In this document: piece after piece, positions 710-64,000 of the stretch
Position numbering within the stretch: the stretch's first letter is position 1
Layout: each line of letters opens with the position of its first letter
Assembly: GCA_951406725.2 (NCBI GenBank)
Contig: OX597830.1
Location: 558,001-622,000 of the forward strand
Origin: Octopus vulgaris
Taxonomy: Eukaryota
DNA: 64,000 bases
Reading direction: 5' to 3'
Position numbers and translations under genes: made by a program
The notes under the pieces: generated by a model
Seen by the model: the letters and a program-made list of their open reading frames with translations, nothing else
Database searches by the model: none
What the model was told of the DNA's origin: nothing

Positions 710-945
710 ATTTCTTTATTGCCCGCAAGGGGCCAAACATAGAGGGGGGTCAAACATGGATTGAGACAAAGGGATTAAGTCAATTACATCGACCTCAGTG
801 TGTAACTGGTACTTAATTAATCGACCCCGAAAGGATGAAAGGCAAAGTCGACCTCGGCTGAATTTGAACTCAGAACGCAGCGGCAGACGAGATACCACGA
901 AGCAGTTCACCCTGTGTGCTAACGATTCTGCCTGCTCGCTGCCTT
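710..945 (-). mobile_element. SINE family A, near full length (tRNA head, CTTTCATCCTTTCGGGGTCGAT central domain, GCCCCTTG..GG.AATAAAGAAAT tail)
   Basis: Minus strand reads AGGCAGAATCGTTAGC (A-box-like) ... GAGTTCAAATTC (B-box-like) ... GCCTTTCATCCTTTCGGGGTCGAT ... GGCCCCTTGCGGGCAATAAAGAAAT; many copies elsewhere in the window. Confidence 0.85.
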
Positions 946-3480: not shown

Positions 3481-4296
3481 CGACTGCTCAACCACTCAAA
3501 TGTGGAAGTCATATATCTCGACTTTGCAAAGGCTTTTGATAAAGTCGACCATGGAATGATATGTCACAAACTGCGTGATCTTGGCATAGTTGGAAAATTG
3601 GGAGAATGGCTTCATGACTTTCTGAAGGATAGAAGTCAGGTGGTAGTAGCCACTTCCATTAACACGCAAATAGCCACTTTTACTATTGCTCTCAGCTATG
3701 GTCATCATCCAGTGTCAAGTTAATCACAGAACTTGAGGCGATCCAACGAAGCTACACGAAGAAGATAGCCTCTGTGCAGTATATAAGCTATTGGGAAAGA
3801 CTCAAAAGATTGAAACTCTATTCCTTAGAGCGTAGGCGAGAAAGATATGCCATAATATACATCTGGAAGATTCTGGAAGGACTTGTCCCAAACTTTGGCA
3901 TCGAGAGTTACGCAAATGCCAGAACTGGGCGCCACTGCACAGTGCCAAGGGCTCCAAATATGCCATCAAGATGTAGGACAAGATACTGTGATAGCCTGGG
4001 CTTCCGAGGCCCACAGCTCTTCAATATCCTCCCGAAGAACCTGAGAGACCTGCACGGGGTGGATGCAGATGTCTTTAAAATAAAACTGGATCTCTTCTTG
4101 TCAGGTGTCCCAGATGAACCAACTTCACCACAGGAGGTTCAGATGAGGGCAGCTGCATCGAACTCTCTCATGCACCAAATGGCAATTGCTAAAAAGCATT
4201 CGTGAAGTAAAATCATGTAGCAACACCAAATGGCGGTGCCCCAGCATGGCCACAACTTGTGAGCTGAAACTAGATAAAAATAAATAAAAAATAAAT
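3479..4296 (+). mobile_element. 5'-truncated, internally deleted copy of the CR1-group LINE at 5101-8402
   Basis: Close match to about 7099-7300 and 7778-8380; encodes [15 protein letters not shown] and YWERLKRLKLYSLERRRER; lacks the segment with GVPQG and YADD. Confidence 0.92.
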
Positions 4297-5101: not shown

Positions 5102-5362
5102 GGGGCACCACCTGCCCCAAAGCGGAGGTACGCAGATGTTGTGCGCGTCACAAACAGCCAACATGATGTTGTCGAAAGAGCAGCTGCTGAGCAACAAACT
5201 TTTTTGTGCATGGCACAAAAGATTGTACAGCAGCTGACCTGGCTTCATCAAACCCAAGCCCGCAGGTGGGACTACCCACTATATACCAGACCACCACAGC
5301 AAACAGACACAGGATGGACACCGCCGGCAACAACGTACACCTCACCTCGATACTCCTACTGA
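5102..5362 (+). pseudogene. C-terminal remnant of LINE ORF1, overlapping ORF2
   Basis: Open frame from the microsatellite junction, GAPPAPKRRYADVVRV...QQTFLC...; YAxVV-type motif is common in non-LTR ORF1; no start codon. Confidence 0.6.
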
Positions 5363-8310
5363 ACATCAGAGGACTGCAAACACTCAGTAACAGGACAAAG
5401 ATCCCATTCCTGAGAGACTTTGTTGCATGCAATCAAGCCATATGCATAGCACTTACAGAAACGCACCTGAAACCGGACATAGCAGATGCGGAGTTACACA
5501 TACCACAGTATGCCGTACTACGGACCGGCAGGAAAGAAAGGAGTCATGGAGGTGTTGCTATGTACATCCGTGAGGACCTCACACCCCAGGTCCTCTTGTC
5601 ATACTCAAACTCGGTGTGTGACACACTAATTGTACATATTAGGCAACTTGATGTAGTTGTGTGTGCTACATATCGCCCTCCAGATGCCCCAAGCCATGTG
5701 GGCAAGTTTGAAGACTGCCTTATAAAAATAGAAGAAATTCTAACCACATTAGAACAACACATAGGTGTGCTTCTTATGGGAGACTTCAATCTGCCCAATG
5801 TCAGATGGCCCGAGGGCCTTTCTCTCCCAGGAATGACAAGATGTGAACGAGGACAGGCGAGGTCCCTCCTGAACCTCACCAACACCCTGTACATGGAGCA
5901 GGTAATACTCCAACCAACCAGGGCAGGTAACACACTGGATCTCTGCTTCACAAATGACATGGATCTCATCCATAATGTGAAAGTGACACCGACACTACTC
6001 TCGGATCACAACATGATAGAGCTGACCATGTACGGGCCAAAAGAGAGCACGGACATGCAGCCTACAAGAAACCCTCAAAATCTTTCCAGCTTGAACTACC
6101 ATAAGGCAAACTGGAAACAAATTGAGAAAGAGATCCTCAAACAAAACTGGCCTAAATGTCTCTCCTCGCCAGACATCGACGTGAAACTTCAACAATTCAT
6201 GTCTGTAATGCAAGCCATATGCTACAAATGTGTCCCAGAGAGAAAGGCCACTGTACACAAGAACAAAATCCCCAGAGAGAGGAAAATTTTAATGAGACGG
6301 CGTACGAAATTTTCAAATCGCCTAAACAAACAGATTGAAAGCAGTGAAAAGTCCCGCCTAAAAATAAAACTGTTGGAAATCGAAAAATGTCTGCAACTCT
6401 CCCATGAAAAAGAAAGAGCAGACAAAGAAGCCTGGGCTATAGAAAACATAAAATCTAACCCCAGAGCTTTCTACAGGTATGCCAAAGAAACAGCTACAGT
6501 GCACTGTAGAATAGGGCCACTCCTCGAAAAGGATGGCACACTTACAGGAAAACCAATGAGGGTAAGTGAAATACTGAATGAGCAATTCAAGAGTGTTTTC
6601 ACTCCACCCCTTGGGCATCTCCAAATCACCAATCCAACTGACTTTTTTACCACTGCAGATATAAAATCAGAGGCGGCGACGATAGATTACATCGATATAA
6701 AGGAAGACGATGTAACCAAGGCTATAGATGAAATGAAAACAGACTCAGCTACTGGCCCCGATGGATTCCCGGCAATCCTCCTAAAAGCATGTAAGAGAGT
6801 CCTAGCAAGACCACTGCAGTTCCTCTTTCAGAGCTTCCTTGCAGCTGGCAAACTTCCAGGAAAACTGAAGGAAGGTAAAATATGCCCCATTCATAAAGGA
6901 GGTAGCAGAGCGGAAGCCAAGAACTATAGACCTATCTCTCTGACCTCACACATCAGCAAGGTCATGGAACGAATAGTCAGAAGGAAGCTGATCACCTTCC
7001 TTGAAGAGAATGACTTGCTGCCCGACACCCAACATAGTTTCCGACCAGGGAGAAGCTGTTTAACTCAGCTCCTACAACACTATGACTGGGTGCTGAAACG
7101 GCTGCTCAACCACTCAAATGTGGAAGTGATATATCTCGACTTTGCAAAGGCCTTTGATAAAGTCGATCATGGAATGATATGTCACAAACTGCGTGATCTC
7201 AACATAGTTGGAAAACTGGGAGAATGGCTTCATGACTTTCTGAAGGATAGAAGTCAGGTGGTGGTAGCCAATGGGGCCACCTCCATTAACACACAAATAG
7301 TGAGCGGTGTTCCGCAGGGCACTGTTCTGGGACCACTACTGTTCATAATGGCCCTCTCAGACATGCCCTCAGCCACGCAGAGAGCCACGATCACAAGTTA
7401 TGCAGATGATACAAAAGTTTCACAGGCAATACAGAACCCTGAGGACACTAAACACCTGCAATGTGAGCTGGACGAAATATACAAGTGGGCTGAAAAGAAT
7501 AGCATGCAGTTCAATGCTGGAAAGTTTCAAGCTTTATACTATCAGCATGCAAAACTGAATGCAATACCCAATGAATACACTGGACCCGGAGGGATTGCAA
7601 TCCCAGAGGCACAATCAGTGCGTGACCTGGGTATTCACATGAGTGATGACGCGACCTTTCATGTACATGTTGCTAAACTGACAATGAAATGTAGACGGCT
7701 GGCTGGCTGGATTCTTAGAACCTTTAGAACAAGAGAACAAGAAACCATGATGGTCCTCTGGAAGACACTTGTCCTAAGCCACTTTGACTATTGCTCTCAG
7801 CTATGGTCACCATCCAGTGTCAAGTTGATCACAGAACTTGAGGCGATCCAACGAAGCTACACAAAGAAGATAGCCTCTATGCAGAATGTAAGCTACTGGG
7901 AAAGACTCAAGAGATTAAAATTATATTCCCTGGAGCGTAGGCGGGAAAGATATGCCATAATATACATCTGGAAGATCCTGGAGGGAAGTGTCCTGAACTT
8001 TGGCATCGAGAGTTACGCAAATGCCAGAACTGGGCGCCACTGCGTGGTGCCTAGGACTCCAAACCTGCCATCAAGATGTAGGACAAGATACTGTGATAGC
8101 CTGGGCTTCCGAGGCCCACAGCTCTTCAATATCCTCCCGAAGAACCTGAGAGACCTGCATGGGGTGGATACAGATGTCTTTAAAATGAAGCTGGATCTCT
8201 TCCTGTCAGGTGTCCCAGATGAACCAACTTCACGGCAGGAGGGGCAGATGAGGGCAGCTGCATCGAACTCTCTCATGCACCAAATAGCAGCTGCTAGAAA
8301 GCCTCCATGA
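5206..8310 (+). CDS. LINE ORF2: apurinic-like endonuclease plus reverse transcriptase (first ATG at 5314)
   Basis: Uninterrupted 1034 aa. APE motifs LLNIRGL, LTETHL, GGVAMY, YRPP, GDFNLP, LDL, SDH; RT motifs [41 protein letters not shown]; CR1-type C-terminus YWERLK.L.LYSLERRR. Confidence 0.96.
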   Translation: MHGTKDCTAADLASSNPSPQVGLPTIYQTTTANRHRMDTAGNNVHLTSILLLNIRGLQTLSNRTKIPFLRDFVACNQAICIALTETHLKPDIADAELHIPQYAVLRTGRKERSHGGVAMYIREDLTPQVLLSYSNSVCDTLIVHIRQLDVVVCATYRPPDAPSHVGKFEDCLIKIEEILTTLEQHIGVLLMGDFNLPNVRWPEGLSLPGMTRCERGQARSLLNLTNTLYMEQVILQPTRAGNTLDLCFTNDMDLIHNVKVTPTLLSDHNMIELTMYGPKESTDMQPTRNPQNLSSLNYHKANWKQIEKEILKQNWPKCLSSPDIDVKLQQFMSVMQAICYKCVPERKATVHKNKIPRERKILMRRRTKFSNRLNKQIESSEKSRLKIKLLEIEKCLQLSHEKERADKEAWAIENIKSNPRAFYRYAKETATVHCRIGPLLEKDGTLTGKPMRVSEILNEQFKSVFTPPLGHLQITNPTDFFTTADIKSEAATIDYIDIKEDDVTKAIDEMKTDSATGPDGFPAILLKACKRVLARPLQFLFQSFLAAGKLPGKLKEGKICPIHKGGSRAEAKNYRPISLTSHISKVMERIVRRKLITFLEENDLLPDTQHSFRPGRSCLTQLLQHYDWVLKRLLNHSNVEVIYLDFAKAFDKVDHGMICHKLRDLNIVGKLGEWLHDFLKDRSQVVVANGATSINTQIVSGVPQGTVLGPLLFIMALSDMPSATQRATITSYADDTKVSQAIQNPEDTKHLQCELDEIYKWAEKNSMQFNAGKFQALYYQHAKLNAIPNEYTGPGGIAIPEAQSVRDLGIHMSDDATFHVHVAKLTMKCRRLAGWILRTFRTREQETMMVLWKTLVLSHFDYCSQLWSPSSVKLITELEAIQRSYTKKIASMQNVSYWERLKRLKLYSLERRRERYAIIYIWKILEGSVLNFGIESYANARTGRHCVVPRTPNLPSRCRTRYCDSLGFRGPQLFNILPKNLRDLHGVDTDVFKMKLDLFLSGVPDEPTSRQEGQMRAAASNSLMHQIAAARKPP

Positions 8311-13905: not shown

Positions 13906-14050
13906 TTTCTTTATTACCTACAAGGGGCTAAACATAGAGGGGACAGATAAGGACAGACAGACGGATTAAGTCGATTACATCGCCCCAAGTGCGTAATTGT
14001 TACTTGATTTATCGACCCCGAAAGGATGAAAGGCAAAGTCGACCTCGGCC
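13906..14050 (-). mobile_element. SINE family A, 3' half
   Basis: Minus strand central domain plus tail AGCCCCTTGTAGGTAATAAAGAAA. Confidence 0.85.
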
Positions 14051-14149
14051 GACTCGACCACGCATATATATATATATATTCTTCAGACATTTAGGCATGC
14101 ATCGTATGTGGTTGCATGTTGATCACTAAAAGAGCATATAAAAATGTAT

Positions 14150-42724: not shown

Positions 42725-42942
42725 CTGGCAGAAACGTTAACACGCCGGGCGAAATGATTTGCGATATTTCGTCTGCCGCTACGTTCTGAGTTCAAATTCC
42801 GCCGAGGTCGATTTTGCCTTTCATCCTTTCGGGGTCGATCAAATAAGTACCAGTTACGCACTGGGGTCGATGTAATCGACTTAATCCATTTGTCTGTCCT
42901 TGTTTGTCCCTTCTGTGTTTAGCCCCTTGTGTGTAGTAAAGA

Positions 42943-42945
<3 letters not shown>
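42725..42945 (+). mobile_element. SINE family A, near full length, followed by (AAT)n
   Basis: CTGGCAGAAACGTTAAC...GAGTTCAAATTCC...CTTTCATCCTTTCGGGGTCGAT...AGCCCCTTGTGTGTAGTAAAGAAAT. Confidence 0.87.
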
Positions 42946-60680: not shown

Positions 60681-60785
60681 GTCTATGTATGTATACCTAT
60701 ATATCTGTATATCTATCTATATATTTATATATATATATATATATACGAAAAAACCCTCCAGGCTACATCCCGAAAATTCATTTCT

Positions 60786-61531
60786 TTGCCGAATTTCTAC
60801 AATGTTTACGGCGATTCGTTTTTATATCTTGATTTTTTATTTTTCATGCAATTTACGCATGCTTGCACGCTTGGTGAACACAGTTCACGTCAAACAGCTG
60901 ACTGAGTAAAGTTCACTATTCAATGCATGGGATAAGGCCTCAACAAACACATTATCGATTTTTGCACTTGCAAGATGAATTTCGGAACAGAAATATATCA
61001 TTCTCATTTTCCATATTTCTCCCCCTATTTGTCTCTGATGACGGAATATTCCATACTTGGGGATATCCCAGAAACAGTTGTAAGATTTTGAATTTCTTCC
61101 TATAATAATATTATATATGTTCCCCTTCCCTCAATGTTTGATGCCCTGTTTCACAATTATATATATATATATATATATAAAACTCAACTTGCATGTCTGT
61201 ATTGTATCTGTGTGTGTGTCGGTGTGTTTAACTTCCCGGCACATCTCTTCCTAGCCAACAAATCGTAGAACCACCAAAAATGGGTCACTTAAAGTTTAGG
61301 CGAATGAAAATTGAACTGCGCTATTTCTGTTCCGAAATTCATCTTGCAAGTGCAAAAATCGATAATGTGTTTGTTTAGGCCTTATCCCATGCATTGAATA
61401 GTGAACTTTACTCAGTCAGCTGTTTGACGTGAACTGTGTTCACCACGAGTGCAAGCATGCGTAAATTGCACGAAAAATAAAAAATCAAGAAATAAAAACG
61501 AATCGCCGTAAACATTGTAGAAATTCGGCAA
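60786..61531. repeat. Inverted repeat with 210-bp arms (60786-60995 / 61322-61531), about 6 mismatches by eye
   Basis: TTGCCGAATTTCTACAATGTTTACGGCGATTCG...TTCGGAACAGAAATA versus TATTTCTGTTCCGAA...CGAATCGCCGTAAACATTGTAGAAATTCGGCAA. Confidence 0.95.
61031..61087 (+). ncRNA. Minimal type I hammerhead-like motif inside the inverted-repeat spacer
   Basis: GTCT-CTGATGA-c-GGAATATTCC-atactt-GGGGATATCC-ca-GAAA-CAGTTG-TA-AGAT; near-palindromic stem III ACAGTTGT, GUA triplet; base of stem II imperfect. Confidence 0.62.
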
Positions 61532-63281
61532 CGAATTTTGAAGGAGTCGGTCGTGTTTTTTTACGCTCGTAAAATTCGGTAAAAAAGAACAAAAGGCGTT
61601 GTTGTTGTTGTGGAAATTCTGAACGGCGTTGACGCGGTTTCGCGTTTCGCTCGTTCAGCGCGTTACACTTTTTCTGTTTTGGCGGCCGTTTTCGGTCTGT
61701 CAGACAGAAGGAAATGGACTATGAGTCTCTAACAGACTTGTCCACGACGGATGAGGAACTGGAACAGGCAATTGCAGTGAAGCTGATGGAGGAAAAGGCT
61801 GGAGTTTTTGAGTCTTTATCAGACTTGCCTATGTCTGAGAAGGAGCTAGAAATGGCAGCAAGGAAATTGGAAGACAAGCTGAGTTATACCTATGCCGGTG
61901 TAACCAAGAAGGCGGAAGAGAAAGGGGTCGACATGGCCAAGTTGCCAAGTTACCAGAAATACATGAAAAAGGAAAGCGGTGAGGTGGAACTATCACCGAC
62001 ACCCAGGAGAAAGGAATGGTATGATAAGAGGACCATTATTTACAGGGTGTTCGCAAACGAAAGGAAGAGGGTAGAAGTTGTAACCATGGAATGGATAGAG
62101 GAAGCCCTGCGAAGAACTGAGGAGGAAATAAATTTTCTGACTCGAGGATCCAAGTACGGGACCGTAGTTGTGCACTTTAAAACTGAATCGGCAGCGAGGA
62201 AGATGGCAGCGAAGGCGGTGAAGTCGGAAAAGGTAACACTGTTACCTACGTATTTAAACAGGAGGATTACACGAATAAGGGTGGAGGGAGTGCCACCAAA
62301 CGTGGAGGCAGAATGGATTGTGGCGGCTGTGATCAGCGGCCACGAGGACGAAGTGGATATTCTCCATGCCTCGGTTAAGTCCGAGGGCTGGAGAGGCGTA
62401 ACAGTGGAGCTGAACGTACAGGCAGAGACCGAGGTACTGGTGGACCTGACGGAAAGCATCAGACTGGGAGAAGTGATCATGAGAGTGTGGGTGGAGGGCA
62501 GGGCTCCACGCTGTTACAAGTGTGGCCTGAGGGGTCACATAAGAGCCTTCTGCCCTCCCCCAGGGAAAGAAATGGATTCCGAACCAGAGAGAGAAGCAGA
62601 AACCAGAGGAGAAGGAAACAGAGGAAGAGAATACACAGAAATGGAAGGAAGCTGGAAGTAAGAGGAAGAGAAGAATATGTGGAAAAAAAGAAAATAATAT
62701 GGAACTCCAATCTACCCCAAAACCTCCCACACCCTCTGAGTCCCACCCTATCCATGCAGACATTGAACCCACCCGCTCCCCACCACCAACAAAACAAAAA
62801 AAAAAAAAGAATACACACACACAAGATATTGAAATCGAACCCAGGCCGTACATTTGTACTATGACTGAACAGAGGGAAGTTAAAAGTCTAATGGAAGAGT
62901 ATAAACGGTATGATGTTGGAGAGACTAGGTATGCTGTGATTGAAAAGAAGAACATAGGTGAGTTTATGGGGAGGTGTGAAAGGGAGAATTGGGAGGTGAA
63001 AGATATAAGAATGAGCGATGAATTCGTGGAAAATATGAATGAGTATTTCGGAGTAAGAATGGATATGGAATTTATTCGTATTGGCAAAGAACATTCAAGT
63101 GACTATGAAAAACAAAGGACAGGTAAGTGATGCTGACGGACGGGGCCGTTGGTATCGCTTTCATTTTATCATTTTTCGTTTAACAATACATGTTCATAAA
63201 GTTTAATTATAATGTTCTATGTCCCCATGTTTTGTTATGTCCGCCATTCTTCGTAGCCCCTTAGTGGGTAATAAAGAAATC
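61512..63281 (+). mobile_element. 1770-bp unit 1 of a tandem ORF1-only non-LTR-like element (first 20 bp are a candidate target duplication)
   Basis: Repeats from 63282; about 200-nt leader, one ORF1-like coding region, 150-nt 3' UTR ending AGCCCCTTAGTGGGTAATAAAGAAATC; no RT or endonuclease motifs. Confidence 0.85.
61714..63130 (+). CDS. Tx1/L1-type ORF1 (gag-like) protein of about 470 aa, split by one frameshift into 61714-62661 and a frame ending at 63130
   Basis: RRM-like RITRIRVEGVPPNVEAEWIV and zinc knuckle CYKCGLRGHIRAFC (CX2CX4HX4C); the +1 frame is open from about 62543 and reads QKPEEKETEEENTQKWKEAGSKRKRR...MELQSTPKPP... to TGA at 63130. Confidence 0.8.
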
Positions 63282-64000
63282 ACATTGTAGAAATTCGGCA
63301 ACGAATTTTGAAGGAGTCGGTCGTGTTTTTTTACGCTCGTAAAATTCGGTAAAAAAGAACAAAAGGCGTTGTTGTTGTTGTGGAAATTCTGAACGGCGTT
63401 GACGCGGTTTCGCGTTTCGCTCGTTCAGCGCGTTACACTTTTTCTGTTTTGGCGGCCGTTTTCGGTCTGTCAGACAGAAGGAAATGGACTATGAGTCTCT
63501 AACAGACTTGTCCACGACAGATGAGGAACTGGAACAGGCAATTGCAGTGAAGCTGATGGAGAAAAGGCTGGAGTTTTCGAGTCTTTATCAGACTTGCCTA
63601 TGTCTGAGAAGGAGCTAGAAATGGCAGCAAGGAAATTGGAAGACAAGCTGAGTTATACCTATGCCGGTGTAACCAAGAAGGCGGAAGAGAAAGGGGTCGA
63701 CATGGCCAAGTTGCCAAGTTACCAGAAATACATGAAAAAGGAAAGCGGTGAGGTGGAACTATCACCGACACCCAGGAGAAAAGAATGGTATGATAAGAGG
63801 ACCATTGTTTACAGGGTGTTCGCAAACGAAAGGAAGAGGGTAGAAGTTGTAACCATGGAATGGATAGAGGAAGCCCTGCGAAGAACTGAGGAGGAAATAA
63901 ATTTTCTGACTCGAGGATCCAAGTACGGGACCGTAGTTGTGCACTTTAAAAGTGAATCTGCAGCGAGGAAGATGGCAGCGAAGGCGGTGAAGTCGGAAAA
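63282..64000 (+). mobile_element. Unit 2 of the tandem ORF1-only element (runs off the window)
   Basis: Leader identical to unit 1; coding part from ATG 63484 has 6 substitutions and a 1-nt deletion near 63560. Confidence 0.9.

Follow-up and report, generated by a model that had tools for sequence, protein, structure and literature searches.

An ORF1-only retrotransposon family of Octopus vulgaris that shares its tail and insertion sites with L1/Tx1-group LINEs and likely uses their ORF2 in trans

How does an element that encodes only the ORF1 of a LINE come to stand in head-to-tail copies inside another transposon? The question is raised by the right edge of a 64,000-nucleotide stretch of the Octopus vulgaris genome (contig C17, positions 558001-622000; hereafter the window), where an initial annotation made from the sequence alone proposed a young, HAL1-like family that borrows ORF2 in trans. 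Our reading, which we hold to be likely, is that an ORF1-only family shares its tail and sites with LINEs of the L1/Tx1 group, uses their ORF2 in trans, and forms arrays by successive insertion at the 5' edge. Below, families A, B, C, D and E are ORF1-only, and F, G, H and J are autonomous, with ORF1 and ORF2.

The features of the window array are collected in Table 1. The head-to-tail copies first recognised there, starting at 61512 and 63282, are genuine and differ at 6 of 718 aligned bases; 1770 bp stands as the repeat period and not as the length of the element, which is about 1733 bp, the remaining 37 bp being duplicated target and 5' tag. Reading of the neighbouring stretch shows three units, with the array ending about 2.75 kb past the window edge and unit 3 followed by the remainder of the inverted repeat of a MITE, the arms of which (60782-61011 against 61306-61535) are 94% complementary. 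The leader is CpG-rich as described (CpG observed/expected 2.19 vs 0.82 for the whole window), the CX2CX4HX4C knuckle is present, and the unit indeed holds neither RT nor endonuclease. The single open frame of about 470 aa attributed to unit 1 was a misreading: the frame runs for 315 aa to a stop, and by comparison with an intact 472-aa copy 2, 1 and 2 bases are missing in simple runs at ~62586, ~62778 and ~62813, with 1 base missing from unit 2 at 63560. At the 3' end, the AATAAA (at 63270) and a 3' UTR of 151 nt agree with the initial annotation; the stem-loop reported there is weak (z of -1.93 for the last 82 nt and -0.22 for the last 147 nt), and a conserved 3' hairpin was rejected on these values and on the different folding of the families. 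The 5' tag has six matches in the genome at up to one mismatch, at three loci. Elsewhere in the window, at 5191-8307 (+ strand), lies the ORF2 of an unrelated LINE, about 1000 aa long, open throughout and carrying endonuclease and RT domains, together with a fragment at 3663-4202.

Table 1 Features of the array and its host MITE in the window (window coordinates)
Feature	Position	Strand	Remarks
Host MITE, left arm	60746..61011	+	Begins after TA; long inverted repeat
Host MITE, right arm to insertion site	61306..61531	+	Arm continues after unit 3, outside the window
13-bp target sequence	61519..61531	+	Second copy after unit 3 is the array's target-site duplication; empty sites compared
5' tag	61519..61548	+	Matches the 5' end of autonomous element J, found on C19 at the same MITE site
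Unit 1, full-length ORF1-only family A element, ~1733 bp	61549..63281	+	
Unit 1, CpG-rich 5' UTR	61549..61713	+	Starts with a motif common to families A-D and autonomous H
Unit 1, ORF1	61714..63130	+	472 aa in intact copies, frameshifted here; two RRM-like domains, CCHC, charged C-terminal part
CX2CX4HX4C zinc knuckle	62512..62553	+	Invariant in 14/14 aligned cores
Unit 1, 3' UTR	63131..63281	+	No poly(A); last 30 nt include AATAAA
37-bp junction, second copy of MITE flank and tag	63282..63318	+	Long duplication from the arrival of unit 1
Unit 2, 5' part	63319..64000	+	Runs past the window; 3' haplotype differs from unit 1; unit 3 next

The RRM-like character first noted for the protein stands, with two domains predicted in place of one; intact A copies elsewhere encode both, with a CCHC, in an ORF1 of 472 aa. 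The predicted structure of the ORF1 core (pLDDT 87.5) has ten PDB matches at E<=0.001, all of them RRM proteins, and the model fits a type I ORF1, that is tandem RRM plus CCHC, as the available part of PMC5203782 defines it. Sequence searches of ORF1 against Pfam and PDB detected the knuckle alone, and gave no Pfam match to the type II ORF1 of L1 (Transposase_22), the predicted fold being tandem RRM instead. A word-based protein search with the window ORF passed none of 2039 candidates, and a profile search with ORF1 found 1818 proteins at E<=0.001; the named relatives among the top matches (6 of 10) come from three Octopus species and Argonauta. L088 (1895-2518 and 6507-7130, - strand) and L123 (485-1108, - strand) hold further, divergent ORF1s of this build, with 24-38% identity to A, and another such ORF1, in L328, is 68% identical to C at the DNA level.

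Dispersal of the unit in the genome, on which the initial annotation depended, is evident: a 561-bp query returned 592 first-screen candidates, all 40 of those scored matching at 99-100%, and the 173 exact matches of a 32-mer put family A at no fewer than, that is at least, 173 near-identical copies. In 35 regions, picked by similarity search rather than at random, 208 units were delimited by the shared tail (112 A, 27 C, 16 B, 11 D, 9 E, 17 F, 9 H-like, 4 G and 3 unclassified). Units of families A-E are all ORF1-only, at 1.65-1.93 kb, and the autonomous type (F, H-like and G) consists of 5.2-kb elements; no ORF2 occurs in any copy of the ORF1-only element examined. A one-off deletion of ORF2 at the window locus was rejected, all 95 A units bounded by two tails (206-2851 bp) being too short for a 3.4-kb ORF2. 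Separately, rearrangement is seen in units of 2.7-2.9 kb in two arrays (L115+L156 and L111; C1 and C17), one of them with part of ORF1 inverted.

The families are young, as had been claimed for the window element, with median distances between units of different arrays of 2.3% for A, 1.3% for B, 1.9% for C, 0.2% for D and 1.0% for F1. An open frame of at least 450 aa is found in 34 of 102 full-length A units, and the other 68 are frameshifted in the assembly. Contigs of eight presumed RNA runs cover the unit and some junctions and show no poly(A) site; two of these runs have ends that we take to be adapter-like, and we do not count the contigs as evidence. At two run-length sites, four of four presumed RNA runs have an extra base relative to the assembly copy, which hints, without being used as evidence either, that some frameshifts of A units are assembly errors. 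ORF1 is under purifying selection both between and within families: dN/dS of the core is 0.096 for A-B and 0.107 for E1-E2 (autonomous pairs 0.05-0.18), and variants found in at least three arrays have replacement:silent counts of 14:16 in A (p 4e-4) and 6:13 in C (p 2e-5), where the ratio of sites exceeds 3. Selection of this strength could also be read as that on a domesticated, RNA-binding host gene family of ZCCHC3-like build, kept in tandem by the host, and a ZCCHC3-type cluster at 0.90 in an Atlas search offers a lead, and only a lead, in that direction. We regard such a family as highly improbable, however, given copies that are young, sit in transposon targets, have tails in common with LINEs and a SINE, include truncations and are mostly frameshifted in the assembly.

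The autonomous partners that the initial annotation had envisaged, LINEs whose ORF1 is related and whose last 30 nt are shared, are present and intact in the same arrays: F, G, H and J encode ORF1 and an ORF2 of 1128-1131 aa with endonuclease, RT and zinc finger. These last 30 nt, with their AATAAA, are common to all ORF1-only and autonomous families and to a SINE. Among solved structures the partner ORF2 is nearest to L1 ORF2p (E 4e-66, vs 4e-26 for R2), and by this nearness and their ORF2 domains the partners belong to the L1/Tx1 group; the Tx1 label would follow from the type I ORF1 and the sequence-specific target. H has the 5' motif of A-D, and F and E have in common a 5' end of duplicated Helitron target. 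On the ORF1 tree, which omits J and is weak at the deep forks, A/B/C, D and E each stand on a long branch of their own outside the F/G/H group, and the best identity of an ORF1-only ORF1 to an autonomous one is 36-46% among the 30 of 150 listed autonomous loci examined. At least three deep ORF1-only lineages share tail and arrays with autonomous LINEs and, because of their long branches and low identity, these families look like old dependent lineages rather than recent deletion products of any partner seen. The label HAL1-like is apt for the structure, and not for a recent deletion of any partner seen or for HAL1 proper; of the proposed borrowing of ORF2, dispersal, shared tail and intact partners are established, and the supply in trans is itself likely. 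Site-specific targeting, mixed and ordered arrays and additional ORF1-only families had escaped the initial annotation.

Family G also builds arrays of its own, in which only 5.3-kb G elements follow one another head-to-tail and the duplications at the junctions are identical (L149+L099+L042 on C22, L224 on C27 and L225 on C30). An abundant SINE, about 185 bp long and bearing a B-box-like motif, lies in the window at 42765-42944 (+), 711-896 (-) and 13906-14052 (-), with eight shorter matches, and is found head-to-tail as well, in a tandem run at L221 9020-9758 (reverse strand); since it has the 3' tail of these LINEs, it is likely mobilised by this group.

Most arrays sit at one site inside a non-autonomous Helitron of 1.05 kb, splitting it into two halves; the Helitron has no coding capacity, 5' TC and 3' CTAG ends, a hairpin just upstream of the latter, and a position between A and T. 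A Helitron 24-mer has 1341 copies in the genome, and exact junctions of tail to Helitron 3' half number 128; among the first 30 Helitron copies along C1, the site is filled in 2, empty in 24 and absent from 4. This Helitron holds 17 of the 20 A loci behind the 40 scored matches, and 16 of 19 F elements lie directly against its 3' half. The target site is itself inside a decayed ORF1 fragment of this LINE group, about 350 bp long (tblastn E 6e-9 to 5e-3; L056). On trees, filled Helitrons are interspersed among empty ones, at distances of 5-7% as against mostly 0.2-2.3% for the units, and the cargo therefore arrived after the Helitron had spread. A second Helitron variant with another 5' interior carries the same decayed ORF1 piece, and about 7 kb downstream of the window array there is a Helitron occupied by one B unit (C17:631000-633700; L032).

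The host MITE of the window has TA ends and 1239 first-screen candidates in the genome. At the window's insertion site, 19 of 20 MITE copies examined are empty and the filled one is that of the window; seven of eight matches are elements ending at one MITE base (five J-type, one other and the window's). Targeting is thus sequence-specific, two transposon targets being entered at a fixed base. A third repeated target was found on C22 and C6, six further A loci, chosen for lacking a Helitron junction, occupy other sites, and H copies lie at many unrelated sites. Rfam gave no match on five loci, so the targets there are not known RNA genes. A telomeric location was not found: the arrays are interstitial and flanked on either side, as on C14 at 37.7 of 84.7 Mb.

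Arrays contain 1-21 units of mixed families. In mixed Helitron arrays the order is (A/C/D/H), B, E, F in 20 of 20, a rule derived from the first arrays examined, its permutation value being therefore overstated; further mixed arrays kept it in four of five, the exception having A after B-like units, and one F is exceptional in having A after it. The nearest relative of an A unit lies in another array in 71 of 102 cases, all three window units among them, and in its own array in 31. Where two units are closely related, the units next downstream of them are as distant from each other as random ones (0.0181 vs 0.0178, n=75), so that neighbours are not co-inherited. On these two observations simple local duplication was rejected as the source of the arrays, which arose for the most part through separate insertions. 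Growth by successive insertion at the 5' edge has precedents in R1 and telomeric elements (10.1101/158386) and in SINEU-3 (PMC4494074), as far as the accessible parts of these papers describe them.

A quite different account would make these arrays satellite-like: unequal exchange would have amplified one early tandem, which then spread through gene conversion, through circles that integrate via short homology or as cargo of the moving Helitron. It has support in that A units of one array are nearer to each other than those of different arrays (1.3% vs 2.3%), in pure C runs of up to 14 units, which like the C2 array look locally amplified, and in mosaic units; a unit-length circle integrating via the 13-bp match would yield exactly the outer junctions of the window, some filled Helitrons that carry a rare variant differ by just 1.7-2%, and dimers that expand by unequal exchange are described in the part of McGurk and Barbash available to us (10.1101/158386). 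However, filled Helitrons are not a clade and are older than the units, neighbours lack co-inheritance, and the 5'-truncated units, the varied duplications and the local target variants repeated up an array fit separate insertions; moreover, selection on ORF1 needs RNA passage or a host role. We therefore consider satellite-like amplification improbable as the full explanation, which the data contradict, and retain it as a second process, with unequal exchange probably adding to array growth. Because units with the same 3' haplotype lie dispersed over the tree built from their bodies, recombination is common, and it could carry junctions between arrays.

What directs successive insertions to their sites? 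Across arrays, the bases following a unit are predicted by its tail type and, more weakly, by its body lineage. Of the two 3' haplotypes compared, one has a GCTC-type site next in 12 arrays and a CG-type site in none, the other a GCTC-type site in 3 and a CG-type site in 20 (Fisher 5e-7), and tails a single base apart go to different sites; nearest relatives in other arrays have the same site class in 51.4 of 107 cases, vs 28.2+-5.0 when shuffled, and about half differ. Elements end about six bases after AATAAA without poly(A), D and C sometimes with an A-run. Given the established distance of normal polyadenylation cleavage past AATAAA, this ending means that normal cleavage would fall in the next unit. 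The 5' motif common to A-D and H is itself where the next insertion preferentially goes. Of 13 arrays with both an outer and an inner Helitron junction, 11 show a difference between the two, many of the differences lying in A-runs, where they may be slippage or assembly error, and Helitrons with a rare variant 15 nt upstream show the junction type in 7 of 14, vs roughly at least 71 of 1341 overall; both observations speak for a 5' end joined by homology.

The 5' tags link particular arrays, and for the choice of site the window is the plainest example. On C19, A units in front of an intact J in the MITE carry the first 30 bases of J as a 5' tag, and A units on C7 carry the J tag at their junctions. 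Unit 3 of the window, which is 0.4-0.5% from a C7 unit with the J tag on both sides, has an ordinary A tail, not a J tail, and is inserted into another MITE copy exactly where the first 13 bases of the tag match; the direction of transfer would be from C19 to C7 to the window. The tail type of unit 1 has the Helitron site next in eight arrays, and in the window it stands at a similar 6-mer just upstream. Elsewhere, A-related units with another 5' tag end at ACCA-type sites at four loci (L308/L321 on C4, L311 on C5, L309 on C3 and L310 on C5), possibly a further inherited address; the relatedness of these units is partly resolved.

With the same elements and the same mobilisation in trans, the target might instead be set solely by the borrowed endonuclease (the Helitron by that of F, the MITE by that of J, the 5' motif by that of H), each tail variant being recognised by the ORF2 of another partner, with no pairing of RNA. 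For the window, the endonuclease of J on its own would yield a similar product. Each of the autonomous F, J and G does have its own fixed sites, and the part of Kojima 2015 available to us (PMC4494074) has target choice set mainly by the endonuclease. Three observations nevertheless make this somewhat unlikely, though it deserves to be taken seriously: window unit 3, with the tail of A and not of J, sits on the 13 bases that follow its C7 relative, one-base differences in the tail go with different sites, and H copies occur at many unrelated sites.

The scheme we favour for trans-mobilisation and array growth would run as follows. ORF1 would package its own RNA in cis, with ORF2 supplied by a partner F, H, J or G; a site would be opened by an autonomous element or by a B/A unit, and rebuilt by the duplicated target or by the element's own 5' motif, such that newcomers would join upstream and the oldest unit would be the 3'-most, some arrays then being lengthened by unequal exchange. 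Taken together, we consider these steps very likely. With less assurance, though still on the side of probability, we propose jointly that the transcript extends a few bases past AATAAA into the sequence after the source copy, that these read-through bases pair with the nicked target and prime reverse transcription, that a lineage would in this way inherit an 'address' from the bases following its source copy, and that transcripts may also begin upstream of the unit, their 5' end being joined by homology. The window array would then be a lineage that gained the MITE address while in front of J. Whether the insertion address is in general a heritable, swappable RNA trait, with long-lived ORF1-only lineages taking the target of the partner that they precede, carrying it as 5' tag and 3' read-through and so moving between safe havens (the Helitron site, itself a fossil ORF1 piece, the MITE and other repeats) and ordered arrays recording insertions like a tape, we regard as evenly balanced.

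Several known systems resemble this one in part. The HAL1 (half-L1) elements of mammals are non-autonomous, encode ORF1p only and arose more than once, according to the accessible part of PMC5753468, and are alike in all three respects, whereas the octopus families have a type I ORF1 with just 36-46% identity to the nearest autonomous ORF1 examined, lack poly(A), and are young, site-specific and set in ordered tandem arrays with their partners. Kojima 2015 (PMC4494074), in the part available, describes a LINE and its dependant in a non-autonomous DNA transposon (Tx1L in Tx1D of Xenopus; Tx1-Mar and SINEU-3 in Mariner-N4_AMi), and SINEU-3 tandems in which sequential insertions enclose a duplicated target, with flank transcription proposed. 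DNA-transposon havens and sequential tandems around a duplicated target thus recur, but here a Helitron and a MITE serve as hosts, the dependants encode protein, up to about 20 units of several families stand in set order in an array, and tags pass between targets.

HeT-A is ORF1-only. With TART and TAHRE it forms head-to-tail arrays in Drosophila (10.1101/158386, as far as accessible). Mixed head-to-tail arrays of ORF1-only and autonomous elements grown by successive insertion are therefore common to both, but the octopus arrays are interstitial, with endonuclease-type insertion and duplications, belong to the L1/Tx1 group, and show no telomere role. As described in the available parts of the sources, R1 of the rDNA forms tandems separated by duplicated target (10.1101/158386), R1Bm requires downstream target bases in its RNA (PMC7265360), and R1/R2 are co-transcribed with their target (PMC4494074). 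Tandems with duplicated target are shared, and in R1/R2 flanking target bases in the RNA guide insertion; their target is one fixed gene, however, whereas here the flank varies by lineage and is apparently handed on and swapped. The accessible part of PMC13282606 lists 80 L1-Tx1 families, 13 of them recently active, without description. A literature search to which Repbase, Dfam and most subscription papers were outside found no description of the system: each ingredient is known (HAL1, Tx1L in Tx1D, SINEU-3 tandems, HeT-A and R1), and we did not find the combination described.

ORF1-only derivatives of LINEs are known mainly as the old HAL1 of mammals and the telomeric HeT-A. In the octopus, ORF1-only elements are young, plentiful and partly intact, beside intact partners, which makes two open questions testable, namely why a parasite keeps ORF1 yet drops ORF2, and how RNA-DNA pairing and the endonuclease share in the site choice of LINEs. 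Automatic repeat libraries would likely split or mislabel such arrays. If it is true that 10-20 bases of RNA can redirect an APE-type LINE, this would bear on tools for RNA-guided gene insertion, and the arrays themselves show a possible start of interstitial satellites from retrotransposons.
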